Source of the DNA: an uncultured Bacteriovoracaceae bacterium
GTDB lineage: Bacteria; Bdellovibrionota; Bacteriovoracia; Bacteriovoracales; Bacteriovoracaceae
Reading direction: 5' to 3'
NCBI GenBank assembly: GCA_964012805.1
Contig: CAXGUD010000012.1
Span: forward strand, 42,311 to 106,310
Length of the DNA stretch: 64,000 nt
Notes under the pieces: generated by a model
Told to the model about the DNA's origin: nothing
Seen by the model: the letters and a program-made list of their open reading frames with translations, nothing else
Database searches by the model: none
Part shown: one piece after another, positions 16,739 to 60,092 of the stretch
How positions within the stretch are numbered: the stretch's first letter is position 1
Layout: each line of letters starts with the position of its first letter
Translations under genes and position numbers: made by a program

Positions 16739-18865
16739 ATGAATTTTAGATTTCTGTCGATTTTCCTTTCTATGATTTTAAGTACTAATCTCTTTTCTTT
16801 TCCTTCCTATATGAAAAGGGATGTCGATGCCTTTTTAAAGCTTAAAAAGCAAATTAAAAAGGAAGTTAAGAAATTTAACAAGGAAACAAAATTCACCATA
16901 AAGTCATCAATGTTTGGCGGCTCAAGTAAGAAATATAATTTTTATCAAAATGTGGTACCAAATTATTGCCAGTTTGGTATTGAACAACAGGTTCATGAAT
17001 CGAAAAACTCCATCTTTAGAACAAAAGATGGAAAAGGTATTGTAAACAGAAGCGGGCCTGTAGATATCGGTGATGACCTGGATATGTTCACCAAGGATTA
17101 TAATCCAAGAAAGAACTTGGGTTACTCAATAAGGTTTAATAATTATTTGGGCAAAACAAATCCTTTAACCCTTAATTATAAAAGTAAATCTGAAAGAGAT
17201 AAGGTCAAAGATGCACTGAATGTTGTTCAGAGGCTTTGTAGAGACAAGAAAAGAAGGCTTAGGAACCTAATTTCAGCTGGAGTTGATCCCGTGGAAGTAG
17301 GGGAACTTGGTAAGTTGAAAAAGGGTGAAAAGAGTCAAGGTTATAACAGGAACCCTTATGATCTCTCAAAATTTAGTGGGAAAGGCTTCAAAAATAATCC
17401 TGCTATGACTATTCCAACTTCAAGTAAGTTTGGTCCTTTCCCTTACAGAACAAGTGGACAGGATCTTGTGACAGTTGGAGCGCTTGGAGGAGAAAGATCA
17501 TTTATTAGAAGAATTGCCATTTCACAACAGGCCAAAAAATCAATTGATATTTTAAACTTACAATTTATGGCCGATGAAATCGGAATGGTCTTAGGAGAAA
17601 TTTTAATCAATAAAAGAAAGCAAGGAGTCAATGTAAGACTTTATATTGATGCTTTTTCGGTTTTTGTTGATGGAAGGGATGCGATCGCTCAAGGGAATTC
17701 TTATATTCTCTATAGAAATATGATGGCCCATGGAATTCCTGTTTATGGTTTCCAGTGTGATTCTAAGTGGAGACTCCTAAAGCAAGAATGGGACAATACC
17801 AAGAAAATTAAGGGGCGTTCCTGGATGCATAGGTTCCATGAGAAAATATGGATTGCTGATGGAGAAGTAGCAATTGTTGGAGGTGCCAATATTACCGCTT
17901 CTTACCACATGGTTTACCCCAATGGGCGTTTGAGATGGAGGGATATGGATGTCGAAATGACAGGAAGAAAAACAATTAAGGATTTGACCAATAGGATAGA
18001 TGAAAAGGTTAAGCTTTATAATAGAGACTTTCCTGATCCAACTAAAATGAAGTGTTTTAATAAATATCCAGTTGGTACAGTTAAGTGGAAAAACTTTGCT
18101 AAGAACGAAAGTAAAAAGTATATTCCTTTTGGGTCAGGTAAAATAAGTAAGGACCAAGACTTTGCCATGAAGTATGTCAAAAAATTAACGAAAGGAGATT
18201 TTAACCTTGAAGGTAAAAAGTGGAAATTGAGAAAGGTTAGGACAAAGGGCTCGAGAGTTGTTTTCTCGAGACCAAAGTTTGGAGAACTTTACCTTGAGCA
18301 GGTTTACATAGACCTGATCAATAAGTCTAAGTATGAAATCCTCTTAGAAAACTCTTATTTTATTCCCTCACAGCCACTTTTAGACGCCTTAATTAAGGCC
18401 TCTCAAAGAGGTGTAAAAATTAAAATTTTGACTAATGGTCCTGAAACAAACGAACCACCTATGGTCATGACTCCGCTAGCGAGGTTCTATTACAAGGACC
18501 TCATGGACGTAAATCAAGGGAATAAAAGGCATGAAGCAGAGATTTATGAGTGGAATGGTCGTTATAAAAACGGTAAAGATATCCATTTTGGAATGGTCCA
18601 CTCTAAGTTTGCTGTTTTCGATAGGCAAATTACACTTATTGGATCTTATAACTTTGATAATGTAAGTAGGGACTTTAATGAAGAGTTGGCAATTCTTTAT
18701 GATGGAACAGATTTGGCGCTTTTTATTGCTAAAAGGTTCTATGAATATGATTTGAATTACACGGAAAGGATTAAATACAAGGATGCATTAAAATATAAGA
18801 AGCCAAGGAATTTTGGTCAACAGATGATTTTAAAAATGCTTAGAAAGATGGAAAGTAGGATTTAG
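16739..18865 (+). CDS. Secreted phospholipase D superfamily protein (cardiolipin synthase-like, two HKD motifs)
   Basis: HEKIWIADG..AIVGGAN and HSKFAVFD...IGSYN; WRDMD; signal peptide; long uncharacterised N-terminal region. Confidence 0.9.
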   Translation: MNFRFLSIFLSMILSTNLFSFPSYMKRDVDAFLKLKKQIKKEVKKFNKETKFTIKSSMFGGSSKKYNFYQNVVPNYCQFGIEQQVHESKNSIFRTKDGKGIVNRSGPVDIGDDLDMFTKDYNPRKNLGYSIRFNNYLGKTNPLTLNYKSKSERDKVKDALNVVQRLCRDKKRRLRNLISAGVDPVEVGELGKLKKGEKSQGYNRNPYDLSKFSGKGFKNNPAMTIPTSSKFGPFPYRTSGQDLVTVGALGGERSFIRRIAISQQAKKSIDILNLQFMADEIGMVLGEILINKRKQGVNVRLYIDAFSVFVDGRDAIAQGNSYILYRNMMAHGIPVYGFQCDSKWRLLKQEWDNTKKIKGRSWMHRFHEKIWIADGEVAIVGGANITASYHMVYPNGRLRWRDMDVEMTGRKTIKDLTNRIDEKVKLYNRDFPDPTKMKCFNKYPVGTVKWKNFAKNESKKYIPFGSGKISKDQDFAMKYVKKLTKGDFNLEGKKWKLRKVRTKGSRVVFSRPKFGELYLEQVYIDLINKSKYEILLENSYFIPSQPLLDALIKASQRGVKIKILTNGPETNEPPMVMTPLARFYYKDLMDVNQGNKRHEAEIYEWNGRYKNGKDIHFGMVHSKFAVFDRQITLIGSYNFDNVSRDFNEELAILYDGTDLALFIAKRFYEYDLNYTERIKYKDALKYKKPRNFGQQMILKMLRKMESRI

Positions 18866-24330: not shown

Positions 24331-25998
24331 ATGGATGATTCATCAAAAACAAGTCTTATAAAAGAAGGTCTACCTTCCGCCATACTTCTTGTGATACTTG
24401 TTATTATTGGCATTGTCCTTGATAAAATGGGTCAAGACATCCATTGGCCTGGTTATTTGTCCATGGTCCTTTTTTATGTAGTGATCTTTGTTGTGGGAAC
24501 TTATGCAGCTCACATTGGTCGACAAAAGCAAAAAGACCTTAATACGGATTCAACTGATACTATGATGTTAGCAGGCCGCTCTGTCCCCTTGATGATGGCA
24601 GTCTTTACCATGAGTGCCACTTGGGTTGGTGGAGGTTATATCAATGGAACAGCAGAATACGCTTATAATCCAGATTATGGTCTTGTATGGGCACAGGCCC
24701 CATGGGGTTATGCTATTAGCTTAATTTTGGGAGGACTCTTTTTCGCAAAAAAGATGAGGCGTCACGAATTTAAAACAATGCTGGACCCTTTTGAAAGAAG
24801 GTATGGAAAAGGGGTGGCAGGCGTTCTTTATCTTCCTGCCCTTATGGGTGAAACTTTTTGGACAGCTGCGATTTTAACAGCTTTGGGTTCAACCTTTGGA
24901 ACAGTTCTTGGTCTCGATTTCACGCCTTCAATTATATTATCAGCAGCAGTCGCGATCGCTTATACCGCTTTAGGTGGACTTTGGGCGGTTGCTTTAACTG
25001 ATATGATTCAAATGGTCCTACTCCTTGTAGGGTTATTTCTTGTTCTTCCCTTTGCTTTAGATCATGTTGGAGGCTGGGATTGGGCCTGGCAAACCTATGA
25101 AAAGAAAATGGGCCCTATAGCTTCTTTTTTGCCATCTAAAGCAGCTCTGGGTAATTATTTTTATAATTGGTGGGATTATGCTTTTCTTCTAATGATGGGA
25201 GGAATTCCTTGGCACGTTTATTTTCAACGTGTTCTTTCTTCCAAAGATGAAAATACTGCTCAAAGGTTATCTATTATCGCTGGGTTGGTTTGTATTTTAG
25301 CAGCTATTCCCGCTAGTATGATTGGGATTATTGGAAATGTTGTGGATTGGACAACTGTTGGGTTATCACAAGCTCCTGAAGCGGCTCAAGTTCTCCCTAA
25401 TGTTGTTCGTTATCTAACAAATCCTTGGGTAGCGACGATTGGACTGGGAGCGATTGCAGCAGCCGTTATGTCCTCAGTGGATTCATCAATTCTCTCGGCT
25501 TCATCGATGGCCGGTTGGAATGTTTTTAGACCTCTTTATTCTCACTTTAAGAAAAAAGAAGTGGAGCCTAAGTCTCTTGCTAAAGTTATTCAAGGGTGTA
25601 TTTGGATTGTTGGGATTGCTGCCACTTTAATTGCTTTAAGAAAGGGAAGTGTTTACGAGCTTTGGTTTTTATGCAGTGACTTTGTCTACTGTATTCTCTT
25701 TCCTCAATTAGTTTTGGCGCTTTATGATAAGAAGGCCAATACTATAGGAAGTATTTGCGGCTTTATTGTGGCCGCGATACTCCGCTTTGGGGGTGGAGAG
25801 TCTTCTTTAGGTATTCCTGACTTTTTTGAATATCACAAAGTATTCGGAATGCCGGAGTTATATGATGCCAAGGCAAACAAAGGACTTTTTCCTTTTAGGA
25901 CACTAGCTATGGTTTCAAGCCTTATAACAATCATGGTTGTTTCAAGGCTGACTCAAAAAATAAGTCCTCCAAGATCTCTAGAAAAGACAGATGTTTAA
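24331..25998 (+). CDS. Sodium:solute symporter, high-affinity choline transporter (CHT1/SLC5A7)-like
   Basis: FTMSATWVGGGYINGTAE, QAPWGYAISL, GGIPWHVYFQRVLS, AAVMSSVDSSILSASSM resemble conserved SLC5A7 segments. Confidence 0.85.
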   Translation: MDDSSKTSLIKEGLPSAILLVILVIIGIVLDKMGQDIHWPGYLSMVLFYVVIFVVGTYAAHIGRQKQKDLNTDSTDTMMLAGRSVPLMMAVFTMSATWVGGGYINGTAEYAYNPDYGLVWAQAPWGYAISLILGGLFFAKKMRRHEFKTMLDPFERRYGKGVAGVLYLPALMGETFWTAAILTALGSTFGTVLGLDFTPSIILSAAVAIAYTALGGLWAVALTDMIQMVLLLVGLFLVLPFALDHVGGWDWAWQTYEKKMGPIASFLPSKAALGNYFYNWWDYAFLLMMGGIPWHVYFQRVLSSKDENTAQRLSIIAGLVCILAAIPASMIGIIGNVVDWTTVGLSQAPEAAQVLPNVVRYLTNPWVATIGLGAIAAAVMSSVDSSILSASSMAGWNVFRPLYSHFKKKEVEPKSLAKVIQGCIWIVGIAATLIALRKGSVYELWFLCSDFVYCILFPQLVLALYDKKANTIGSICGFIVAAILRFGGGESSLGIPDFFEYHKVFGMPELYDAKANKGLFPFRTLAMVSSLITIMVVSRLTQKISPPRSLEKTDV

Positions 25999-32528: not shown

Positions 32529-34808
32529 TTAGATAGGAAGTTTCACGGTAAATTTAGTTTCTATATCAATTTCAGATGAAACAGAAATGCTTCCTCCCAG
32601 ATTAATAACTTCTGTTAGAACAGCTTCCATACCAATCCCCCTTCCAGAAATATCGTCTACACTGTCTCTAGTTGAAAAACCGTGGCTAAAAATAAGATTA
32701 TAGACTTCTTCAATTGATAGACTATCGACTTCTGATTTGGTTTTTATTTTACTTTTTATTGCGGTCAATTTTATCTTTTCGAGATCTAGACCTTTCCCAT
32801 CATCACTAAAAATAATTAAAAAGCAATCCTTATTCTTTACCAATTGAACTTTTATAGAAGCTTCAAATGGTTTACCTTTCTTCTTCCTTTCTTCTTGGGA
32901 TTCTATTCCGTGATCAATCATATTTCTGAAAATGTGGATTAAGCTATTTATAAATTCCGCGTATTTATTATATTCAACAAGAATTTTATCTCCTGATATT
33001 TCAAACCTAATTTTCTTATCCTGTTTTGATGCGACTTGATTAATCAGAGTGTGATACTTATTTAACTTTTTTCTTATATCAACAAGAATATAATCATTAT
33101 AAACGTTTATATGAAGTTCTTCTAAAGATTGAGCGTTCACAATAAGCTCAATCATTCGATTGGCCTCTATGGCATTGCCTTCTTGGACTAGAAATTTTTT
33201 AACTGCCTGGATCATTAGATCATTTTCTTTTAATAGATCTTCAAAATTTTTACTAAAAATATTGATTGAGTGGTTAAATGCCTTTCCATCGCTTGTGTGT
33301 ATGGAATCCTCTATACTGTTTAGAATAGAAGAAAATGATCTCAATCTAAATTGACCAAATCGTGCTTTAAGTGTGTGAAATTGTCTAAAGCAAACTTCTT
33401 TGTTTTTTATAATATCTTGATTCTTATCAATTGTTTCGTAAGTATCCCTTATGAGCTCATTTAAGTCTAGGGGATTTTGAAGGCCATATTTTATAAATTG
33501 AACTTCTTCATGATCTTTTTCTTGAAGAAATTTTAATTTCTCTTGTTCCGTCTTGTCCGTTACAATTAGAATGATCTTATTCAATACGTTTTGTTTTTTT
33601 TCATTAAAAATCGGTCTAAAATTTAAATGAATAGATTTACCTTGATGGTTAATAAATTTTTTAGGTGCTAAATGTAAGACATCTTTTATTTTAAGTTTAT
33701 TACTGAAAAGGTAGCCTACCCATTTTTTTATTGCGCTAACGGTTCTCTCTTTGACTTCTTCATCTTGAATTTTTTTTGTTAGGACATCCCAAATCTTTAT
33801 TTTTTCCACTTCAGATTCGTAAAGAGAAGTTTCTAAAAGTTGTTCTACTTTTTGAGTGGCACCTTCACTTATTATTCCATCACCATTAAAAGTAAGGTAA
33901 CCTTGTTCAAGACCAGAAAGTATATTATCTCTTTCAATCTTTTTTTGATGTGAATGAATTAAAAAATCTTCAAGAGTGGCCCTTTCAAACTCAAGATCAA
34001 GGCTTGTATTCTTCATTTCTTTATGCAGGTTCATGTTATTTTTCATTAATTTCTCAATGTTCTCTTGGTATAACTTATCTTTATAAGAAAAATCTTTATT
34101 GTATTTTATGTCTTTAGATCGACTTATTTCACTTCCATTTTCACTAGATATTTTTTCAATAACACCAATATTTAGAAGTAATAAATGAAAAAAGACCAAA
34201 AGTATTATTCCAAAGGCCCCCAAAAAAGAAATAGGTATAAAAATGACTAGGGAAGTGAACATAATTTTTGCAATTTTTGTTTCTTTGGCAAGAAGGTAGG
34301 TAATATTCAAGGAGAAAATATAGGAAATCAGATAGAGAAAAATAGTTAAAGATATCCCAACTAATGAATTAAAAAAGAAAGATAAAATAAATCCAAATGC
34401 TAGGAAGAACATGAAGTGGGGAATATATCTTAAACGTATTTTTTCTGGGTCATCAGTTTTAAAAAACTCTTTTAAAAAATAGAAGAAGCATACCAAAGTT
34501 AAAAAGCTTAATATGACATACCTTTTGAAAGATATTTGATCCATATTAAATAAATTCGCTTCTTCGAATAAATTGGTTTCAAAAATTAATAAATTTGAAA
34601 GAAGGAAATATGTCAAAAATAAAAAGAAAATTTTCTTCTTCGTTTTTAGTCCAGTTAAAAAATTAAAAGTTATGAGTAAAAAGAGAAACATCGAATGAAG
34701 ACCGTGAAAAAACTGACCAGCTGGAAGTTCTCTTTGTAAAGGTGAAGCACCAAGCGGAAAACTCACCACTATTAATAAAAACAAAAAAATAGAAAAATAA
34801 ACCACCAA
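32529..34808 (-). CDS. Multi-TM sensor with Hpt and HATPase_c (CheA-like histidine kinase)
   Basis: About 7 TM; FRQFHTLKARF (Hpt); HIFRNMIDHGIE, DDGKGLD, FSHGFST, SGRGIGM. Confidence 0.88.
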   Translation of the reverse strand: MVVYFSIFLFLLIVVSFPLGASPLQRELPAGQFFHGLHSMFLFLLITFNFLTGLKTKKKIFFLFLTYFLLSNLLIFETNLFEEANLFNMDQISFKRYVILSFLTLVCFFYFLKEFFKTDDPEKIRLRYIPHFMFFLAFGFILSFFFNSLVGISLTIFLYLISYIFSLNITYLLAKETKIAKIMFTSLVIFIPISFLGAFGIILLVFFHLLLLNIGVIEKISSENGSEISRSKDIKYNKDFSYKDKLYQENIEKLMKNNMNLHKEMKNTSLDLEFERATLEDFLIHSHQKKIERDNILSGLEQGYLTFNGDGIISEGATQKVEQLLETSLYESEVEKIKIWDVLTKKIQDEEVKERTVSAIKKWVGYLFSNKLKIKDVLHLAPKKFINHQGKSIHLNFRPIFNEKKQNVLNKIILIVTDKTEQEKLKFLQEKDHEEVQFIKYGLQNPLDLNELIRDTYETIDKNQDIIKNKEVCFRQFHTLKARFGQFRLRSFSSILNSIEDSIHTSDGKAFNHSINIFSKNFEDLLKENDLMIQAVKKFLVQEGNAIEANRMIELIVNAQSLEELHINVYNDYILVDIRKKLNKYHTLINQVASKQDKKIRFEISGDKILVEYNKYAEFINSLIHIFRNMIDHGIESQEERKKKGKPFEASIKVQLVKNKDCFLIIFSDDGKGLDLEKIKLTAIKSKIKTKSEVDSLSIEEVYNLIFSHGFSTRDSVDDISGRGIGMEAVLTEVINLGGSISVSSEIDIETKFTVKLPI

Positions 34809-34870: not shown

Positions 34871-35021
34871 AGAGAAATAGTCGGAAAACCCTATTGAGGA
34901 AGGTTTTCAAGTCAATAAATTTTATTTGCTAAGTGTCGCGTAAAAAATACCAAATATCTTCTAAGGGTTTGATAAGACCCTAAAAAAAACATATTATGCG
35001 TAGCGTCTGGTCCTTAAAGTT

Positions 35022-36905
35022 ATGGTAAAAGTCATGTTAACAAAAAGCAATTATCTTGAGAAAAGGCGGGTACTCGATAAAGATTCTTTGGCTTTTCAGC
35101 TAGGTGAGACTTTGAAGGCGCTATACCCTAATTTGCAAAGAGAACACGAAGATGTCTTTTTTGAACTGAATTTATTGTTAAATGAAATTTATCCAGAGCT
35201 TGAAAAAAGTCTTGATAGCAATCAAAAGTTTTTTGGTGGGATGCCTACCGATTGGAGTGCTTCCTCCCTTTTTGAATATTATCTCAAGAGGCGTGAACCA
35301 CTTCCTCAGCATTGCAATTATGGTTTTATATTAGAAGATTTTCTTCCAAATACATTTAACCCCCTTCTAAAGGCAGCTACTTTTGCTCTAAATCTTTATC
35401 ACTTTTTAAAAGAAAAAAAAGAAGGGAATTTTAAGAGTACTCCAACAAAGTGGGGAATGGTAGATAATACTGTTTACCAAAAGTTCATCCACCTTACGAG
35501 AAGACCCGGGATTGGTAGAGACTCTGTCGTCTATAATTCCTGGGAGGATATTCAATCAATAATTATTATTTATAATGGACACTATTTTAAAGTTCCTCTT
35601 TTTAATAAAGAATATAAGCGTGCTTATAGTGCATTAGAGTTAACCAAGTCACTTAATAAAATAGTTAATTTAAAAAAAGATAGAAAGAACTCCTTTCCTT
35701 TAGGAGTCATGACTTCGTTAAACCGTGATAAATGGGCAATTTATCAAGACTCTTTTAAAAAAATTGAGAACTTTTCTGTATTTCTAGATGAATTAGAAAA
35801 GTCACTTTTTGTCCTTTCTCTAGACTTAAATGAATTTCCATCAACTAAAAGTGATAGGGTAAGGCTTGCAATTGATGGTCGTGCAGAAAACCGCTGGTAC
35901 GATAAATCTTTAAATCTTTCCATTTCCAAGAATGGAACAATAAGTGTTAATTGTGACCATCTCATTATGGATGGTTCACCCTTTTTAGAAATGATCAATA
36001 GCGCATTCGAAGCGGGCGATTCCAATGAAACTGACCATAATCAAATGAATCATCTTTGTGAAAAGAGTGTGCCTTTTTTTGAATTAGTGTCACCTGATAT
36101 AAGTAGTAATATTTCTAAAAATGAGCAAATGGCTGTTTTAAATGAAATAAATAAAGAAAAAAATGAGATAAGCTGCACCCATTATGAGCTGTCCATAGGA
36201 ACTGATATTTTCAATAAAATGAAGCTACGTCCTGATATGTCTTTTCAGCTTTTTATTCAAATGGCCAGTTTCATTACTTTTAGTTCGATTCTCTCAACGA
36301 GTCAGGCAGTTGAAACGAGAAATTTTGAATACGGGCGTTATGACACCATCCTTTCAAATTCAAATTATATTCAAAGATTAACAAACCTTTTTGAAAATTC
36401 TTATGACCAGGAAAGTGCAAGGCCTTTCATATCACTTTTTAAAGCAATGGTTGAAAATCAAAAAAATAAAATCGTAAGCTGTAAAAACGGTGAGGCCATG
36501 ATAACCTATTTAGACGCCCTTTTGGTTTTGGACTTACCCTTAGAAAACCCAAAAAGAAAATCTTTAGACCGTTTTAAGTTTCTTTTCGAAACAAATCCAA
36601 TTTTAAAAGGTCTGATGGACCCCTATATATCAACTTCAGGAATACCTCATGTAAGGTCAATTGATACTTTTGCTTTCACTGATTTTGGAAAGGATAAATT
36701 GGGTCTTGGTTATATTATAGGACCCAAAAAAGTCATTCTTGGAGAATATCGACTTGGAGATTTTAAAATTAAAAAAGATAATTTTATAAAAAATCTTAAG
36801 GCAATTATTAAAAAATTTATTTTACTCCATAAAGACCATGAAATAGAAGTCGAAGATGGTAAAATTTCAAATCATGGAGAGGAATTTTTGAAGGAAGTAA
36901 GGTGA
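35022..36905 (+). CDS. Choline/carnitine O-acyltransferase family protein
   Basis: YLKRREPLP, RRPG...D, GVMTSLNRDKW, FVLSLD, ENRWYDKSL..NG...NCDHLIMDG (catalytic His), PDMSFQLFIQMA, TRNFEYGRYDTI, STS motif. Confidence 0.88.
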   Translation: MVKVMLTKSNYLEKRRVLDKDSLAFQLGETLKALYPNLQREHEDVFFELNLLLNEIYPELEKSLDSNQKFFGGMPTDWSASSLFEYYLKRREPLPQHCNYGFILEDFLPNTFNPLLKAATFALNLYHFLKEKKEGNFKSTPTKWGMVDNTVYQKFIHLTRRPGIGRDSVVYNSWEDIQSIIIIYNGHYFKVPLFNKEYKRAYSALELTKSLNKIVNLKKDRKNSFPLGVMTSLNRDKWAIYQDSFKKIENFSVFLDELEKSLFVLSLDLNEFPSTKSDRVRLAIDGRAENRWYDKSLNLSISKNGTISVNCDHLIMDGSPFLEMINSAFEAGDSNETDHNQMNHLCEKSVPFFELVSPDISSNISKNEQMAVLNEINKEKNEISCTHYELSIGTDIFNKMKLRPDMSFQLFIQMASFITFSSILSTSQAVETRNFEYGRYDTILSNSNYIQRLTNLFENSYDQESARPFISLFKAMVENQKNKIVSCKNGEAMITYLDALLVLDLPLENPKRKSLDRFKFLFETNPILKGLMDPYISTSGIPHVRSIDTFAFTDFGKDKLGLGYIIGPKKVILGEYRLGDFKIKKDNFIKNLKAIIKKFILLHKDHEIEVEDGKISNHGEEFLKEVR

Positions 36906-36906
36906 A

Positions 36907-37233
36907 ATGATGGGTTGGATTTATTTATTGAGTGCAATTTTATTGGAAGTTTCAGGTACTATGTCTATGAAATTGTCAGAAGGACTCACAAAAACAATTC
37001 CCTCTATTTTAATATTTATTTTTTATGGTCTATCCCTGTCTCTTTTGACTTTGGCCTTAAAATTCATTCCCGTAAGTATTGCTTACGCTATATGGTCTGG
37101 GATAGGCACGGCCCTCATTGCTATTATTGGTTTTACCTTTTTTGATGAAAGTTTTAGCGCTTTAAAATGGCTTGGAATTGGTCTCATTATAATAGGGGTT
37201 GTCTTGATAAATTTAAAAGGTACGGCCCATTAA
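36907..37233 (+). CDS. SMR family (QacE/EmrE-like) small multidrug / quaternary-ammonium exporter
   Basis: 108 aa, 4 TM, conserved TM1 Glu (AILLEVSGT..MKLSEG), IPVSIAYAIWSGIGT. Confidence 0.93.
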   Translation: MMGWIYLLSAILLEVSGTMSMKLSEGLTKTIPSILIFIFYGLSLSLLTLALKFIPVSIAYAIWSGIGTALIAIIGFTFFDESFSALKWLGIGLIIIGVVLINLKGTAH

Positions 37234-41375: not shown

Positions 41376-43301
41376 GTGAAGTTACTTCCCTTTTATGCAT
41401 CTATTTTAACCTATATATTTAGCTATATTGTATGTGGCATAATTGGACATTTTTTGGGTTCACATGGTTTCGATTTTATTTGGGTTTTTCCTCCAGCCCT
41501 TATTCAACTTGGTTTTTTTTTTATAAGAAGAAAAGTAAAAAAACTAAACTTTTTTGCGATGTCTTCTCAAACAATCTATGCCATTTTTTTTATTTTTTAC
41601 ATGATCCCAGATCTCTATAAATTAGAAGCCTACCTTGCTTTTTTTATTTCGCTATCCCTTTTATGTGTCACTATTTTAAAGCTTGAAGAGTTTCTAGTTA
41701 TTTCTTTAACTGGCATTATATTTTTCTTTTGGCTTTATATCTTTAAGGATGGGGTTGTTAGTACTAGTGAAATTAGAATTACTTTTATTCTCCTTTCCTT
41801 TAGTTTTTTCTCCTTTTTATCTTCTATTTATGTGAATTGGATAAGGTTACGGCTTAAAAAAAAGGAAAAAACCTTGCAGGATAATCTTTTTTTTATAACA
41901 AATCAAAAGTCCAATCTGAATAATATTCTTAATAACCTTAATCAAGGTTACCTTACATTTGATAAATTTGGAACTATTGGTGATGAAGTAACGATGATAA
42001 CAAACTCCCTTTTAGAAAATGACATCAAAAAGGTAAGGGATCAAGACTATAAAGTTTGGGATCTTATTTATGAAGATGAAAAGAAAAAAGAGCAATTTAA
42101 AAGCTGGGTTTGTAAGGTCTTTGATGGAAAGCTTTCTTTTAAGGACTTACTACCTCTGGCACCTAAATATTTTAAGGGAAAAAAGTATAAAGACGTTAAA
42201 TTGGACTTTAGGCCGATTTTTTATGAAAAAATGAATAAAAAAGTTGAAAAAATTATAATGATATCTATTGATAAAACTAATGAAGTTTTATTAGAAGCTG
42301 AAGCTGAACGAAAAAATGGACAAGTCAATTTTATTATTAATTGCCTTGATCACCCGATTGATTTTTTAGACTTGATCCATGATACTTATGAAGCCCTTGA
42401 TAAAGATCCCGATTTGAAAAACGAAAAGGAATTATTATTTCGAAAATACCATACGCTTAAGGCCAGGTTCGGACAGTTTAAATTAATAAGTCTTGTAAAA
42501 AAAATCGATAAAATTGAAAATTATATTCAAAATAGTGATGAGAAAAAATTAAAAATTAGTATCCAGGAATTCAAAGACGATTTTGACAGTCTCCTTAAAG
42601 AAAATAGTTTAATTGTAAAAGCTGCTAATAAATTTATGGTTGAAGATGGTCAGGCCATTGAAGCATATAGGGTCATTGAATATATAGTAAACGCAGAATC
42701 TTTGGAAGAACTTCATTTACTCATTTATGAAGATCATATACTCGTTGATTTAAAGAGAAAGCTAAAAAGATATATAGAGCTTACCAAACAAATTGGATTA
42801 GACCAGGAAAAAGAAATTGTCCTTGAAATAACAGGGGACGATGTCTTAGTTGAGTACAACAAGTATTCCGAATTCGTTAATAGTCTTATTCATATCTTTA
42901 GAAATATGATAGATCATGGAATTGAGACAAAAGATGAAAGAGATAAAAATAATAAAAACTTAATTGCAAAAATTGATGTTAAATTTAAAAAATATAAAGA
43001 TAAATTTGTGATAACTTTAAAAGATGATGGAAGAGGGATGGACCCTGAAAAAATTAAATCGACAGCAATTAGTCGAGGCCTTAAAACCGAAAAAGAGATA
43101 AACAAACTAAAAAAGGAAGAAATATTTAATCTTGTTTTTCTCCAAGGTTTTTCTACCAAAGAAGGCGTCAGTGAACTTTCTGGAAGAGGTGTTGGAATGG
43201 GAGCAGTTCAATCAGAAATCAACAACCTTTCGGGTTCCATTACAATAGATTCTGAAATAGGGAAAGAAACCAAGTTCATCGTAACATTGCCATTAAAATG
43301 A
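41376..43301 (+). CDS. Multi-TM sensor with Hpt and HATPase_c (CheA-like histidine kinase), paralog of 32529-34808
   Basis: About 5 TM; FRKYHTLKARF; HIFRNMIDHGIE, DDGRGMD, FLQGFST, SGRGVGM. Confidence 0.88.
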   Translation: MKLLPFYASILTYIFSYIVCGIIGHFLGSHGFDFIWVFPPALIQLGFFFIRRKVKKLNFFAMSSQTIYAIFFIFYMIPDLYKLEAYLAFFISLSLLCVTILKLEEFLVISLTGIIFFFWLYIFKDGVVSTSEIRITFILLSFSFFSFLSSIYVNWIRLRLKKKEKTLQDNLFFITNQKSNLNNILNNLNQGYLTFDKFGTIGDEVTMITNSLLENDIKKVRDQDYKVWDLIYEDEKKKEQFKSWVCKVFDGKLSFKDLLPLAPKYFKGKKYKDVKLDFRPIFYEKMNKKVEKIIMISIDKTNEVLLEAEAERKNGQVNFIINCLDHPIDFLDLIHDTYEALDKDPDLKNEKELLFRKYHTLKARFGQFKLISLVKKIDKIENYIQNSDEKKLKISIQEFKDDFDSLLKENSLIVKAANKFMVEDGQAIEAYRVIEYIVNAESLEELHLLIYEDHILVDLKRKLKRYIELTKQIGLDQEKEIVLEITGDDVLVEYNKYSEFVNSLIHIFRNMIDHGIETKDERDKNNKNLIAKIDVKFKKYKDKFVITLKDDGRGMDPEKIKSTAISRGLKTEKEINKLKKEEIFNLVFLQGFSTKEGVSELSGRGVGMGAVQSEINNLSGSITIDSEIGKETKFIVTLPLK

Positions 43302-45259: not shown

Positions 45260-45754
45260 TTAAACTTCGGAAAATAGTTTTAACTGGCCTTTACAGTAAA
45301 TAAGATTACCGTCGTTAGAGCTTACTTTGCCATTAACAAAGGCAATGGTGGAGATTTCTCGTTCTTTATTTACCTTAATGCGGAGTATCTTATCGCCTCT
45401 TATATTATGGTGTGAAAAGGACATTTTTTTGTAGCTTATGACGAAGGTTTTCTTGAAGCCTCTATACTGACTTTTGAAATGATAATGATAATGGGCCATA
45501 ACAAAGCCAAAGGATTGGGCCATGATTTCTATCATAGAGGATTGCCTTAAAAATCCATCGGTACTTGCTAAAGGAATCTCATTAAGGTCAACTAAACATT
45601 CCCCTCCGTCTTCATCGCTCCACAAAATTGTTTTAACCCAAACCATAGGAGGTCTGTGGGGGAGCCAACTTTCTAGGACCTTTGTTTCTAATGGTCTATT
45701 GTAAATGATTTTTCCCTTCGCCTTTTTGATTTCGTTTGTCTTTAACTCTTCCAA
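45260..45754 (-). CDS. Hotdog-fold dehydratase-like protein (ApeP-like)
   Basis: LPHRPPMVWV, IEIMAQS. Confidence 0.7.
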   Translation of the reverse strand: MEELKTNEIKKAKGKIIYNRPLETKVLESWLPHRPPMVWVKTILWSDEDGGECLVDLNEIPLASTDGFLRQSSMIEIMAQSFGFVMAHYHYHFKSQYRGFKKTFVISYKKMSFSHHNIRGDKILRIKVNKEREISTIAFVNGKVSSNDGNLIYCKGQLKLFSEV

Positions 45755-45771
45755 CTTTTAATCTCTTGTTA

Positions 45772-47355
45772 TTATTTTTTAATAAAAAATTCATCACTTT
45801 GAATTGCTAATTGAATCAATTCCTTTTTAAGGTCCATTATATGGGAATCTAAAGGTGTATCCCTTGTTACAAAAGTAGCGACTTTTCTCACTAGATTATA
45901 GAGTTTCGTCGAGGTCTTTCCCTTTAAGCTTATTCCTCGAAGATCAAGGCCTTGGGTGAGGCAAATGAGGTGGCACGAAGTAAGAGAAAAGAGTTTATCA
46001 ATTAAATCAGAGCACTGGGAAGCGGCGCTCATTCCTAAGCTTATTTTATCTTGGTTATGTGATTCAGAAGATCTGGAAAAAATACCATTAGGAATTGTCA
46101 TGGCCATTATTTCCGATGTTATGGCCGAAACACATTGATGAAGACCTTTTAAACCGTGGTGGGAGTGCCTTTCATTTTCTCTCAGGTCATTTTTATCAAC
46201 AAGGTTATCAGGTAGGCCTCGGTTAGTTTTCCCATTAATTAAAAGGGCCAATTGCCTGTCCATATGATCGGCCAGATGACCAAGGCTTATTTTTAAGTAG
46301 TCCATGCCGTGGCTTAAATGGCCTCCATAAAAGTTTCCTCCCGTGGCCATTTGGCCTTCTTCATCAATGAGAGGGTTGTCACTTACACTATTAATTTCGT
46401 TTTCAAGCCATTTTTCAACAAGGTCAAACGTTTCCAAGATTGGGCCTAAAATTTGAGGAGAGCACCTTAGGGAGTAGGGGTCTTGAATCATTTGATCAAC
46501 AATATGGTCTTTAACCCCTATATCACGGTAAGGAGTCGAAGAATAAGACTCTTCTTCCAGGAGAGATATAATGATCTTTGCACTTTCAAATTGACCTTCT
46601 TGAAGTTTGGCCTTTTGGTTAACGAGCTCTCCAAAGGCCTCAACTCTTCCGTTAATACTGATACAAAGCCAAGCCGAGCATACATGGGCCATTTCGAGAA
46701 GGAACCTGCCATAGTTGTAATTAATAAGGGAGTAGGCCGTCATTGAAGAGGTTCCATTGACAACAGCAAGTCCCTCTTTTGGTTTAAATCTGTAAGGTTT
46801 TACCTTTTGCTCTTTTAAAAGGGAACTTGCTTTAAAAGTGCCTTTTTCTGTTATAACTTCACCATCACCTCTTAAGATATTACCTAAATAGGAAAGAGGA
46901 ATGAGGTCGCCACTAGCTCCAAGAGAGCCCTCTCTGGGAGTTAAGGGGAACCATCCCTTGTCAGCGAAAAGGATCATGTGTGAAATAAGCTCGGGGCTTA
47001 CCCCAGAGTAACCTTTGGAAAGAGAAATGATCCTTAAAAGGAGGGTCGCCTTAGATGTATGGTAGTCCAAAAATCGACCTGTTCCACAACGAAGGTATGA
47101 AAGGAGGTTTTCTTGAAGGTTCTTGGACTCATCTTGATTAATGTACTTATAGCAGCTGTCTCCAAAACCTGTCGTCACGCCATAAACGGGAATCTGGTCG
47201 TCCAGGATTTTGAGAAGTTGTGAAAAAGAACCCTCTATTTTGCCCTTTAGTTTATTGCTTACCGAAATTGACTTAAAGGTTCTTCGAGAAAAAATATAAT
47301 CCATCACTTTTTTAAGAGGGATAGGCCCATCTTCAATAAAAAAACATTCTTCCAT
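45772..47355 (-). CDS. Aromatic amino acid ammonia-lyase (HAL/PAL/TAL family)
   Basis: YGVTTGFG, MIO-forming GASGDL, KEGLAVVNG, QDPYSLRC, DNPL, GGNFYG, HNQD. Confidence 0.92.
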   Translation of the reverse strand: MEECFFIEDGPIPLKKVMDYIFSRRTFKSISVSNKLKGKIEGSFSQLLKILDDQIPVYGVTTGFGDSCYKYINQDESKNLQENLLSYLRCGTGRFLDYHTSKATLLLRIISLSKGYSGVSPELISHMILFADKGWFPLTPREGSLGASGDLIPLSYLGNILRGDGEVITEKGTFKASSLLKEQKVKPYRFKPKEGLAVVNGTSSMTAYSLINYNYGRFLLEMAHVCSAWLCISINGRVEAFGELVNQKAKLQEGQFESAKIIISLLEEESYSSTPYRDIGVKDHIVDQMIQDPYSLRCSPQILGPILETFDLVEKWLENEINSVSDNPLIDEEGQMATGGNFYGGHLSHGMDYLKISLGHLADHMDRQLALLINGKTNRGLPDNLVDKNDLRENERHSHHGLKGLHQCVSAITSEIMAMTIPNGIFSRSSESHNQDKISLGMSAASQCSDLIDKLFSLTSCHLICLTQGLDLRGISLKGKTSTKLYNLVRKVATFVTRDTPLDSHIMDLKKELIQLAIQSDEFFIKK

Positions 47356-47414: not shown

Positions 47415-47795
47415 ATGGAGAAAAGAAGCACTTTACTAAATTTTAGTAGATCAGATTTAAAGTGGCAAATAACTGATCTGTCAAAAAGTTCCTGGACAAT
47501 GAGATGGATCGTTCCTCACGACCTTCCCTTTTTTAACGGCCACTTTCCTGAAGGTTCGATCCTTCCCTCGGTCATCAGCTTAGAGGCTTCATTAGAATTG
47601 ATAGGTTTAGCTTTAAAAAAAGAAAAGGTGTTCTTAACGGAAGTTAAAACGGCCAAATTTTTTGCACCGATTACCCCCGGTTCGAAGGTATTTATTCGAG
47701 GAATGATGAAGAGTTCGGAAAATCACTGGTTAGTGGACTGGTTTGAAGAAATCGAAGAGGGAAAGAAAACTGCAACTTTTTCTTTATTATTATAA
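47415..47795 (+). CDS. FabA/FabZ-like (ApeI-like) 3-hydroxyacyl-ACP dehydratase
   Basis: FFNGHFPEGSILPSV, AKFFAPITPG. Confidence 0.8.
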   Translation: MEKRSTLLNFSRSDLKWQITDLSKSSWTMRWIVPHDLPFFNGHFPEGSILPSVISLEASLELIGLALKKEKVFLTEVKTAKFFAPITPGSKVFIRGMMKSSENHWLVDWFEEIEEGKKTATFSLLL

Positions 47796-56671: not shown

Positions 56672-57379
56672 TTAATTTCTTCTACTTTTTTTAATACAAA
56701 ACTTTGGAGAAGGGTCTTGGCAATACCTTTCAACCTTCCCCCATTTAAACAAAAATTTAAGGTAAACTTCTTTTTTGTTAATTGTGTCTTCTCTAGAACC
56801 GCTTATTTCAACCTCAGTTTCAGTCACGGCACCCCCAGAACCAGAGTTAGGGAAAACGTCAGTATCCTCTATGTCAATTGGGTCGAAAAAAAAGTCACTG
56901 ACTGTGTTAAAGGCTTTCCAATGGAAACCGAAAGAAAATTTCCCATCCCATCTATCAAAATTTCCACAAGTTCTTTCAAAGTAGCAAATTTCTTTTTCAT
57001 TTGTTTCCATGAAGTGCAAAACAGACATTGAAGGAATATATTTCCCCCCACCCATACATGAAATAACGGCGCTTAACTCCCTATCATAGGTTATATTAGG
57101 ATTTTCTTTAACAGGTTCAGGGAATTTCCCGTCAGCTATACCGGTAAGAATTTTAGGATAAGTCCCACCAGGTCTGTCTTGAAAAACTATATGAACATCA
57201 ACACATGACTTTGCGACATGCAATCTAAAATCCCGCTCTGAGTAACCAGCTCCTTTTCCATGGCCTGGTTGAGGCTTTGATGAACTTTGAGTGTATCCCG
57301 AGATTGGTACTAAAATAAGCGAAATAAGTATAATTTTATAAAACCTTTTAAGGATTGAATTATTTTTCATTTTCTTCAT
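56672..57379 (-). CDS. Secreted Cys-containing hypothetical protein, paralog of the 57981 scaffold
   Basis: Signal peptide after a GAGGAGG RBS (start 57379 or 57370); shares REL..ISC.GG, C...R.CGN...W.G..S.G..W and RYC..P...FC with 57981-58913. Confidence 0.75.
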   Translation of the reverse strand: MKKMKNNSILKRFYKIILISLILVPISGYTQSSSKPQPGHGKGAGYSERDFRLHVAKSCVDVHIVFQDRPGGTYPKILTGIADGKFPEPVKENPNITYDRELSAVISCMGGGKYIPSMSVLHFMETNEKEICYFERTCGNFDRWDGKFSFGFHWKAFNTVSDFFFDPIDIEDTDVFPNSGSGGAVTETEVEISGSREDTINKKEVYLKFLFKWGKVERYCQDPSPKFCIKKSRRN

Positions 57380-57950
57380 TTTCCTCCTCAATATCTTTAC
57401 AGCGTACTTCAATTTCACTATGCCTTGTCGATACCCAAAGTTTTAAGAGAACATATCCCGCAGGAATTGGGGCCCCATTAATTGAAACTTTCAAATCAGA
57501 ATGGTCTTGAGAGCAAAAACGCCTATGACATTTGAGAGCTTTTAGGGGAATATCTTCATCTGAAGCAACTTTTGGTTCCTTTTCAACTTCATCACTTGAT
57601 GTGTCCTCATTATTATTTTCATAATGAATTTGCCCATTTTCCAATTGGAGGATGTCTTTTTTGCCATTTATTTTTTGTTGAACGATAATTTTGTCTTTAT
57701 CTTCATTTTCTCTTGCTTCCATTTCACAAACTTCTACAATTTTGAGTGAAGCATTCGTAAACCAACCGGGCATTTTTCTATGGGTAATTTGAATGGGAAA
57801 TTTATCATCCTGATTAGCACAAACCATGGTGGGAGCAGGAGCTCCTGAAAAGCGAACAGCACAGTTTATATGGTCTTTTGAGTAAAGAGGGGAGGTTAAA
57901 AAACCTCCCAAAGTGACAAAAAAGACCATTTTTTTGATTGAACTTATCAT
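57360..57950 (-). CDS. Secreted hypothetical protein (6 Cys)
   Basis: Signal peptide; stop overlaps the next gene's start. Confidence 0.7.
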   Translation of the reverse strand: MISSIKKMVFFVTLGGFLTSPLYSKDHINCAVRFSGAPAPTMVCANQDDKFPIQITHRKMPGWFTNASLKIVEVCEMEARENEDKDKIIVQQKINGKKDILQLENGQIHYENNNEDTSSDEVEKEPKVASDEDIPLKALKCHRRFCSQDHSDLKVSINGAPIPAGYVLLKLWVSTRHSEIEVRCKDIEEENEENEK

Positions 57951-57980
57951 AATTTTGCCTTTTTAAATTTTATTGGTCTT

Positions 57981-58913
57981 TTAGTAGCAGAATTCGTTTT
58001 CAGGTTCTGTACAATACCTTCTTATATTTTCGTAAGTTGTGTCCCAGTTGGCATAAAGTCTAATTTGGTTATAGGCCGTATTTGAGAGTCCTGTATTTAC
58101 TGTATTAGCTGCATCAACTCCGAAAGATCCTGGTGCTCCTGCTCCTCCGGCACCTCCATTTCCAGCACTGACATTAACACCAGCTTCATTACAATCCATA
58201 AGTGCTGTGTTATTTGTATTCCCTGTAAAATCTCCGAGGCCGTCTCCACCAGGCCCAGCTTGACAGATAAATTTAATATCAGGACTAAAGATATCCGTTT
58301 TTGAGGTTGAGATATAACCTTGAGACTCTAAATGATCGGTGTATTCTTTCCATTCTGAATTAGATAAGTAGTTTTTAGGATAGCAGTTGATGTCACCAGA
58401 AGAGACAGAGCCGCCTTTCCCAAATGTTGCAACTGAGGCATGGCTGCTATTCACACAAACTTTGTTGCTGCTATTATTAATTGTGGAAGTAACAGAACCA
58501 CCATTTATGTCTCCACCATCTCCGCCATCCCCACCTTCTGTGGCATTAGCGAGTTTAATATAATTATTTTTCAATTTCGTATTGTTTAAAAAGTCTGTAA
58601 TGGAATGGCCCATAGACCATACAGCACCAATGCTAAGGCCGCCTCTCCAGATTTTTGCATTTCCACATACCCTTGTGCTTTGGCAAAGTTTTCTTTCACC
58701 ATGAACGGTTTTCCATTCAAACATGTGGACAGTTGTCGCTTCAGGGTGATGAAAGCTTCCACCGTGGCAATTTAGAAATGATGTGATTTCTCTTGCATTA
58801 TCTCCGCCTTTTGGGTCTTTCATTTTTAAAATGGTATCCTTGCAGACGGCCATTAAGTTTGAAGAAAGTAAAAGAGCACTGCCAATAGGTGCTAATTTTT
58901 TAAAAAAGTTCAT
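57981..58913 (-). CDS. Secreted Cys/Gly-rich hypothetical protein (56672-type scaffold with inserted 59031-type module)
   Basis: Signal peptide ending LMA; GGDGGDGGD and GNGGAGGAG stretches; 4-Cys module. Confidence 0.8.
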   Translation of the reverse strand: MNFFKKLAPIGSALLLSSNLMAVCKDTILKMKDPKGGDNAREITSFLNCHGGSFHHPEATTVHMFEWKTVHGERKLCQSTRVCGNAKIWRGGLSIGAVWSMGHSITDFLNNTKLKNNYIKLANATEGGDGGDGGDINGGSVTSTINNSSNKVCVNSSHASVATFGKGGSVSSGDINCYPKNYLSNSEWKEYTDHLESQGYISTSKTDIFSPDIKFICQAGPGGDGLGDFTGNTNNTALMDCNEAGVNVSAGNGGAGGAGAPGSFGVDAANTVNTGLSNTAYNQIRLYANWDTTYENIRRYCTEPENEFCY

Positions 58914-58981
58914 AGATTCCCCCCTTTTTTTGGAAAAAAGTATTTTTAATAATTTATTGTTTGGAAGATTTTAAATTTTGA

Positions 58982-59009
58982 AGGGAAGAGAGTCTGACCT
59001 CTCTCCCCT
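58982..59009 (-). promoter_or_regulatory. Intercistronic stem-loop after the first gene of the operon
   Basis: Minus-strand RNA aggggagagag-gtcaga-ctctcttccct pairs fully with one G-U; no long U tail. Confidence 0.65.
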
Positions 59010-59030
59010 GAAGTCTAAAAATTAGTAATT

Positions 59031-59810
59031 TTAATTTTCGTCTTCTCCGTCATCCATTACATCAATATCACAAGTTTGAATTGCTGATGCACTAACATTT
59101 CCAGAGCCTGCACCAAAACCAGCTCCACCAGATCCGTTCAAGCAAAGGAAACGAACACTTGGGCTTGAAATATTTGTTCCTTGAAGATCAATATCATCAT
59201 CAGATGACATATAACCTTGAGCAATAAGGTTTAGGTCAGCATTTGAAAGGTGTGACTTTTGAAAACATTCTGTTCCGATGGAAGAGCCATTCCCACCAAC
59301 TCCATAAAGGTGTTTTACAGAAACGTGAGAATCATTAAGGCAATTATTTCTTGGCTCGTAATCATCTCTAAACACAGCACCATAATTAACTTCTTTACCG
59401 GTGTCGTGCTGATTACAAGTTTGTAAACTTAAAGCATTAATATTGGCCGAAGCAGAACCAAAACCAGCTCCACCAACACCGTTAGAGCAAACATATTCTG
59501 TGCTTGCATCTAAAATGTCATTTAAGCTATTTTCAATATCATCATCGTGAGCAATCAAACCAAACTGTGTTAGAAGACTTCCAGAAAAAGACCTAAGTGA
59601 GGAAACGTGAACACATCTTTGTCCTAAAGCGTGACCATCTCCACCAATACCGCCTATGCTTTTAACATTAGCCTCAGTATCGTTAACACAATTATTGTAT
59701 GGCTCGTAATCATCCATTCCTCCACGGTGGCCACCGTATCCTCTTCCTAATGCAGAAGTAGCAACCGTTAAAGCAAGAACAGCCATTGAAGTTTTTTTTA
59801 AGTAATTCAT
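59031..59810 (-). CDS. Secreted protein with two tandem Cys/Gly-rich repeats of roughly 100 aa
   Basis: Signal peptide MNYLKKTSMAVLALTVATSALG (GGAG RBS); repeats begin DDYEPYNNC and DDYEPRNNC and end GGAGFG...QTC. Confidence 0.85.
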   Translation of the reverse strand: MNYLKKTSMAVLALTVATSALGRGYGGHRGGMDDYEPYNNCVNDTEANVKSIGGIGGDGHALGQRCVHVSSLRSFSGSLLTQFGLIAHDDDIENSLNDILDASTEYVCSNGVGGAGFGSASANINALSLQTCNQHDTGKEVNYGAVFRDDYEPRNNCLNDSHVSVKHLYGVGGNGSSIGTECFQKSHLSNADLNLIAQGYMSSDDDIDLQGTNISSPSVRFLCLNGSGGAGFGAGSGNVSASAIQTCDIDVMDDGEDEN

Positions 59811-60092
59811 AATTTTTTTCTCCGTTAAAAAACTGTTAATATTAAAATTAAAAACCAAATCATCCATGAAACCTTTTTACCCGGGTAAATAAAAAATATT
59901 CATTCAAAAAAACAAGCGAGAAGATGTTGGAAAAAAAATTATAAGTCAATAAAAAATTATTTTTTTATTTTTTTTTTTGTAACAAATGTTCATAAAATTA
60001 AAAGAACATTCTAAGGACAAAAAATTTATTTTTTATTTTTATAAAAATAAAATTTAGGAAAAATATATAAAAATTGAAAAAAAAATGTTGGG

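Follow-up and report, generated by a model that had tools for sequence, protein, structure and literature searches.

Does a bacterium of the family Bacteriovoracaceae make a choline ester and secrete it? The question is raised by two adjoining genes in the window, by which we mean the whole stretch of DNA that was analysed, 64,000 nt of a contig (CAXGUD010000012.1) from an uncultured member of this family. The first gene encodes an enzyme of the choline/carnitine O-acyltransferase family (PF00755), and the second a small transporter of the SMR family. The sequence-only reading had seen in them a cassette that makes a choline-like ester and exports it, loosely parallel to the ChAT/VAChT locus of animals.

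The enzyme gene is an intact ORF at 35022-36905 on the forward strand, encoding 627 aa without an internal stop, and it is present as a single copy in the genome. Its start is probably at 35034, since the Met5 encoded there is invariant in eight of eight close homologues. The protein scores 250.6 bits against PF00755, as compared to a curated cut-off of 22.3 (E 4e-74), and carries the motifs NCDHLIMDG (with His313 and Asp317), GRYDT (438-442), GEAMITYL (490-497) and STS (537-539); the family membership, the catalytic His and the STS motif first seen by eye are thereby confirmed. The Pfam comparison that had been proposed was also made for the transporter, which passes the cut-off of PF00893. 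The AlphaFold model of the enzyme, made with a 107-row alignment as input (pLDDT 92.7, pTM 0.91), has the predicted two-domain fold of the family over its full length. It spans ChAT, CrAT, CrOT and CPT2 from end to end, with Z 35.5-38.0 and TM 0.75-0.82, and the next fold follows at Z 14.7. Animal ChAT (PDB 2fy2-2fy5, 1q6x, 9f85) gave Z 38.0 and an rmsd of 2.9 Å over 555 residues, and CrAT, CrOT and CPT2 (PDB 1ndb, 1nm8, 1xl7, 2h4t), which share the catalytic His, gave Z 35.5-37.8; these top values are effectively tied and do not separate ChAT from CrAT. An ESM Atlas search with the enzyme returned PF00755 clusters only.

Both genes are under purifying selection. For the enzyme gene dN/dS was 0.14-0.18, and for the SMR gene 0.05-0.07, in four of four pairwise comparisons each (rough values, with the synonymous sites near saturation), which rules out a pseudogene. 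A sigma-70-like promoter match of 10/12 lies just 5' of the pair (34969-34997, forward strand), and it is weak, as promoter and terminator scans around the pair stayed at chance level, with 10 promoter sites found and 9.5 expected from shuffles.

The enzyme had at first been described as eukaryote-type. If this is taken to mean ChAT-like or derived from animals, the description has to be given up. Among the best 150 of 1757 matches, taken as 50%-identity representatives, one group shows GRY(D/E) in place of the GRT(E/D) found in most members, and within these 150 the named members of the group are bacterial (Bdellovibrionia, Ca. Kentron). Trees were made from 84 rows (LG+G4) and from 45 rows (mixture model, two longest rows left out), by quick searches and with a midpoint root. 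A branch with 100% SH-aLRT sets the GRY group, together with P0082 and P0105, apart from every eukaryotic member sampled and from the other bacterial ones; it separates the group from the animal ChAT-like and CrAT rows, and in these quick, midpoint-rooted trees the enzyme is thus not an orthologue of bilaterian ChAT or CrAT. Alignment and trees place the enzyme in a separate bacterial subfamily marked by the GRY motif, which implies that the gene was not taken over from animal ChAT; the identity to animal ChAT is 19%. The separate branch, together with a GC content of 32.6% as compared to 35.3% genome-wide, also rules out a recent transfer from an animal. The window genus is found on a long branch inside the GRY group, and its exact placement is weakly supported (81-89).

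The subfamily is sparsely spread. The enzyme has seven close homologues with 58-78% identity, two of them named by NCBI, as Halobacteriovoraceae and Bdellovibrionota proteins. Of 61 related genomes searched, all three members of the genus had the gene, and none of the 34 others that belong to the family did. Outside the genus, the subfamily is present in eleven genomes. Matches came from 7 of 131 genomes in the class of G415 (one weak fragment not counted), from 4 of 38 in the order of G418 and from 1 of 127 in the class of G419. A phylum-wide search of 401 genomes gave two, adding a single divergent extra, and neither a further search for homologues, made with the alignment of the subfamily, which gave no new subfamily members, nor a plasmid search, which gave no matches to the enzyme, widened this range. 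A motif scan of genome contigs gave 40 loci, of which 5 were real; the other 35 were chance matches and were dropped after the HMM check.

The acceptor pocket was compared in a residue table of 78 proteins (5 close homologues, 21 other subfamily members, 4 of the Vibrio-type clade and 48 others), from which 6 divergent rows were left out, the pocket being mapped by sequence alignment only. The catalytic parts are kept. His313 (codon at 35958-35960, forward strand) aligns with the His found in all 78 proteins, and Asp317 of HxxxDG, Asp405, Arg439, Tyr87 and the STS residues Ser537-Thr538-Ser539 are present as well. It is the carnitine site that has been lost. In CrAT the carnitine carboxylate is bound by Tyr452, Ser454, Thr465 and Arg518, and in the alignment their places are occupied by Ser427, Ala429, Tyr440 and Thr495. 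The first three belong to a remodelled acceptor strand (36300-36341, forward strand), where Ser427, Gln428, Ala429 and, further on, Tyr440 replace Tyr452, Glu453, Ser454 and Thr465 of CrAT; Thr495 (36504-36506, forward strand) stands at the site of the carnitine-binding Arg of the DRHL motif. The earlier manual alignment of GRYDT and GEAMITYL had listed the Thr and the Arg as missing ligands. Both are indeed replaced, by Tyr440 and Thr495, and the changes at Ser427, Ala429, Leu83 and Asp554 had been overlooked.

These changes are common to the subfamily. Tyr440 is found in all 26 members, in a column that is Thr in 47 of the 48 comparison members, and none of the 26 has Arg at position 495, as compared to 44 of the 48. 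Position 427 is Ser, Asn or Thr (Tyr in 47/48 others), position 83 is Leu or Met (Trp in 48/48), and position 554 is Asp in 26/26, where 42/48 others have the Pro of a GPV motif. This Asp554 (36681-36683, forward strand) is a candidate counter-charge for a cationic acceptor. Because the carboxylate positions are replaced across the subfamily, carnitine is very unlikely to be the acceptor.

The enzyme resembles animal ChAT in having HxxxDG with Asp and STS, and in lacking both the carboxylate-binding Thr and Arg. The pocket motifs differ; the human ChAT chain has TYES, GRVDN, DNHL and YGPV, and the window enzyme has TSQA, GRYDT, the GEAMITYL region and FTDF. Two aromatics of the ChAT pocket, the Tyr of TYES and the conserved Trp, are replaced as well. 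By its aligned residues the acceptor pocket is of a third type, neither carnitine-type nor ChAT's, and with ChAT's own pocket not kept, the residues argue against carnitine without selecting choline. The Met564 of CrAT, which presumably gates the acyl chain length, corresponds to Phe550; this suggests a short acyl chain, in a column that varies in the wider subfamily. The position of CrAT Phe566 is aromatic here too (Phe552). At the CoA site, for which the CrAT residues Lys419, Lys423, Asp430 and Glu453 were taken from PMC11852590 (as was His343), Asp430 is kept as Asp405, Lys419 and Lys423 have become Thr394 and Asn398, and Glu453 has become Gln428. The two CoA-phosphate lysines are poorly kept, position 398 being Lys in 2/5 close homologues.

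The SMR gene (36907-37233, forward strand, 108 aa) begins one nucleotide after the enzyme gene ends, with a single base between TGA and ATG, just as the sequence-only reading had it. Its protein scores 104.9 bits against PF00893 (cut-off 23.7), and in the register of EmrE it has the central Glu14, Tyr40, Ser43, the switch residue Tyr60 and the binding-site Trp63. The subtypes (Qac/Ebr/EmrE versus Gdx, MdtIJ and ArnEF) were compared following the definitions in the available text of PMC9574504. The models gave 95 bits for EbrB, 92 for Qac and 77 for EmrE, as compared to 64 for SugE and 60 for MdtJ, none reaching its own cut-off, and the best PDB match is EmrE. The protein is like the EmrE/Qac subtype in its residues and in being encoded by a single gene; it differs in falling under every named-model cut-off, and in being kept with a biosynthetic-type enzyme and not on a resistance element.

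Conservation of the pair in other genomes had been suggested as a check, and the pair was found in each of the five loci with downstream DNA (window, G001, G002, L008 and L009), with the SMR gene 1-4 nt after the enzyme gene; L007, identical to the window, and L010, which ends within the enzyme gene, were not counted. In G002 and L009 the pair precedes a MerR-type regulator and an acyl-CoA dehydrogenase, and the flanks all differ from those of the window, which implies that the pair has moved as a unit. The SMR link was found in one genus only, and since the carriers are kin, this establishes a cassette and not a repeated origin. These loci bear on a conventional explanation, in which the enzyme is a carnitine acyltransferase for fatty-acid oxidation or the SMR gene is a mere chance neighbour. 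The closest sequence matches of the enzyme are CPT2 and CrAT, and beta-oxidation genes, the dehydrogenase among them, do adjoin the pair in G002 and L009. Against this, none of the four carboxylate positions is kept, the Thr having given way to a bulky Tyr, and the pair was kept through rearrangement; we regard this explanation as very improbable.

If carnitine is set aside, the genes for choline become relevant. A gene for a predicted Na+/choline symporter of the SSF family, similar to CHT1/SLC5A7, is located at 24331-25998 on the forward strand of the window. It matches sfCHT with E 1.6e-177 and human CHT1 with E 2.6e-121 (PDB 9rws, 8j74), and in the alignment all five binding aromatics of sfCHT (W99, Y126, W176, W298 and W445) are present. 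It is loosely linked to the enzyme gene, 9.0 kb upstream in the window and 5.3 kb away in G001, and in G002 the two are on different contigs. Within the family it is nearly confined to the genus (3/3 genus members, 1/34 other genomes), and BetA is distributed in the same way. According to a preprint on sfCHT (10.1101/2025.09.30.678764), what CHT homologues do in prokaryotes is largely unexplored. The window genome also encodes a BCCT similar to BetT and a BADH-like protein. That the genus handles choline fits with a choline acceptor, but BetA gives imported choline another sink, and betaine synthesis alone would explain the CHT1 homologue without the enzyme. The window further encodes a large protein of the phospholipase D family whose N-terminus is signal-like (16739-18865, forward strand); such enzymes can release choline from phosphatidylcholine.

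Other lineages couple the genes more tightly. In G491 a CHT1 homologue (E 2e-135 to sfCHT) is directly adjacent to the enzyme gene and divergent from it, and the stop of the enzyme gene overlaps an EamA gene. This stretch (L081:6135-10437), with importer, GRY-subfamily enzyme and EamA transporter adjoining, is the most complete module that we saw. In G418 EamA and enzyme are fused in frame in one ORF (L053:3126-5411, a single record), with choXW-choV elsewhere in the genome. The EamA part of this fusion had no match among solved structures, and a likeness to LicB could therefore not be shown. In G415 choXW-choV precedes the enzyme gene, with an ATGA overlap at the enzyme start, both models being just under their cut-offs. 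These three unrelated genomes point to choline. Two of the eleven carriers outside the genus have a DMT gene next to the enzyme gene (P about 9e-4 with the background of the window genome, 8 DMT genes in 3884 ORFs, and P = 0.02 at five times that background). In G552 and G566 the gene directly upstream of the enzyme gene encodes a Rieske oxygenase whose nearest relatives are carnitine monooxygenase and GbcA, and in G555 a 2-oxoacid dehydrogenase E1 is upstream. In G416, G417, G419, G446 and G447 the enzyme gene has no choline or DMT neighbour, two of these loci being cut by contig ends.

When the whole genomes are searched, an importer of the CHT1 or ChoX type is present in 9 of the 14 carriers. 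Neither was found in the same five genomes, which are drafts of unknown completeness, nor was a BCCT in the four of them that were tested. In the order of G418, ChoX is present in 4/4 carriers as compared to 9/38 genomes, the carriers being kin and not independent; in the class of G415 an importer is present in 2/6 carriers versus 20/131 genomes, which is not significant (P 0.23). No BetA over the cut-off was found in G491, G418, G415, G552, G555 or G566, and the two CDP-alcohol transferases of G418 are PgsA- and PssA-like. Genomes such as G418 would thus import choline without having its usual sinks. A search of 5 genomes for choline kinase likewise gave nothing over the cut-off.

The enzyme may conceivably acylate some cationic alcohol or amine other than choline, such as an ethanolamine-like compound, a polyamine or a toxic quaternary one; the two genes would then serve to modify and expel it, or to handle a small metabolite, with no relation to choline. 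A pocket unlike ChAT's, with the new invariant Asp554 and Tyr440, would agree with this, as would the SMR protein, closest to multidrug Qac/Ebr models though under their cut-offs, and the five of 14 carriers in which a choline importer was not detected. The long branch of the window enzyme, together with an identity of only 21% to the enzyme of G491, also implies that its substrate may have drifted. Yet two unrelated kinds of choline importer directly adjoin the enzyme in G415 and G491, and the same residues have been lost by convergence next to choline genes in Vibrionaceae. An acceptor other than choline is in our view unlikely.

The Vibrionaceae clade lies on a branch separate from the GRY subfamily. 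PF00755 was found in 15 of 261 Vibrionaceae genomes, and the proteins of the clade have Ile at the Thr position and Thr or Ser at the Arg position. Twelve of 14 full loci (L091-L104) adjoin choV (7), a BCCT-like gene (4) or betB (1), and the other two adjoin acetate kinase. By these alignments, carnitine specificity has been lost more than once in the PF00755 family, and choline genes accompany the lost carboxylate site on two separate branches, which supports choline as the acceptor.

For that clade, the neighbours lean to the scavenging direction, and the enzyme of the window may work in reverse as well. It would then move acyl groups to CoA from acetylcholine or other choline esters that the cell has scavenged, so that the energy of the ester is kept, and the choline would go to betaine via BetA or leave through the SMR protein as a valve. 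The uptake of esters has precedents, since ChoX binds acetylcholine (PMC2635726) and LicB transports it (PMC8890701), as far as the available text of these papers goes. An SMR protein with a valve role in nicotine catabolism is also described in the accessible literature, and EmrE can export betaine according to a citation in the available part of PMC13300293. BetA and the BADH-like gene of the window genome, as well as the Rieske oxygenases of G552 and G566, would suit such a pathway. On the other hand, the substrate established for importers of the CHT1 type is choline, and in G491, which has no BetA over the cut-off, such an importer is coupled to the enzyme and EamA. Exporting choline only to import it again would be futile, and the equilibrium of acyl transfer between choline and CoA lies mildly on the side of ester synthesis. 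We consider the reverse direction rather unlikely for the pair.

The best reading of the locus, tentative and falling somewhat short of an even chance, is therefore choline O-acylation with export of a short acylcholine. Choline is probably the acceptor, and given choline, the synthetic direction with export is moderately favoured. The base of this reading is the intact predicted fold with its catalytic His, the lost carnitine site, the conserved coupling and the recurrent association with choline importers and DMT genes. Choline would enter via CHT1 or BetT, and its ammonium may be held by Phe552, Tyr440 and Asp554. His313 would activate the hydroxyl for attack on acetyl-CoA or another short acyl-CoA, the acyl group being most probably acetyl, and a homodimer of the SMR protein would use Glu14 to export the ester against protons. 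With an importer and an exporter together, the export of free choline would be a futile cycle. The ester may be a secreted signal or effector; alternatively, surplus acyl groups may be dumped to free CoA, as CrAT does with carnitine. A point against the best reading is that EamA proteins can be choline importers, as described for LicB in the available text of PMC8890701.

Of the cassette claimed in the sequence-only reading, the family, the loss of the ligands and the SMR coupling stand, and it is the gene neighbourhoods that make a choline-type acceptor the likeliest. The parallel to the ChAT/VAChT locus survives as an analogy, as animal ChAT is served by a vesicular transporter of the SLC18/MFS type and the window enzyme by an SMR protein, from a different transporter family. 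It is possible, though doubtful, that Bacteriovorax-like bacteria and neighbouring lineages have a complete cholinergic module, with a CHT1-type importer and a ChAT-family enzyme, both true homologues of their animal counterparts, and a DMT exporter in the place of VAChT, and that they secrete acetylcholine to act as a signal or effector. If so, prokaryotes would have their first acetylcholine synthase of the ChAT fold, arisen independently of animal ChAT.

Production of acetylcholine by bacteria has long been known. The pathway was previously undetermined according to the available part of PMC13391359, in which BbChAT and PpChAT of commensal bacteria make acetylcholine from choline and acetyl-CoA. 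Their product is extracellular, as we propose for the window genus, and the two synthases, the sole bacterial enzymes for this reaction that we met in the open papers, are hexapeptide-repeat proteins with an unrelated fold; that part of the paper mentions neither an exporter nor a ChAT homologue in the genome. A preprint (10.64898/2026.10.09.757917) treats PF00755 in opisthokonts only, as far as its available text goes. In the open literature, our coverage being limited to open papers, no description of the function of bacterial PF00755 proteins, of the GRY subfamily or of an enzyme-SMR cassette was found. What the locus adds is a defined subfamily whose acceptor pocket is new, together with a small cassette and a candidate exit route for a choline ester; synthesis and export of an acylcholine would be a first for this family in bacteria. 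Either direction would be new, environmental bacteria that secrete a neurotransmitter-type molecule or an energy-saving scavenging of choline esters.

Some unusual members of the family were seen in the searches. Three small genomes have miniature PF00755 proteins of 353-397 aa (L084:7010-8203, L085:6585-7682, L086:6672-7733), about 200 residues shorter than usual and with the His and the subfamily motifs kept; two of the three genes are directly behind a carnitine-monooxygenase-like Rieske gene. A very divergent member in G156 (L017:1417-3285) apparently lacks the catalytic His motif. Among the best 150 of 1757 matches, P0115 (1719 aa) and P0149 (3104 aa) have C-terminal PF00755-like domains and are probably megasynthase fusions.

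Elsewhere in the window, a series of ORFs on the reverse strand (56672-59867) encodes predicted secreted proteins rich in Cys and Gly, some of them apparently paralogues; the two that were tested had no Pfam matches. An aromatic amino-acid ammonia-lyase and a FabZ-like dehydratase are encoded at 45260-47355 on the reverse strand, with a hotdog-like ORF at 47415-47795, and this region resembles fragments of flexirubin or aryl-polyene pathways. Several CheA-like sensor proteins of one paralogous type, with varied membrane sensor domains, are encoded at 898-3609, 10535-12532, 32529-34808 and 41376-43301, and one of these genes is divergent from the enzyme gene.
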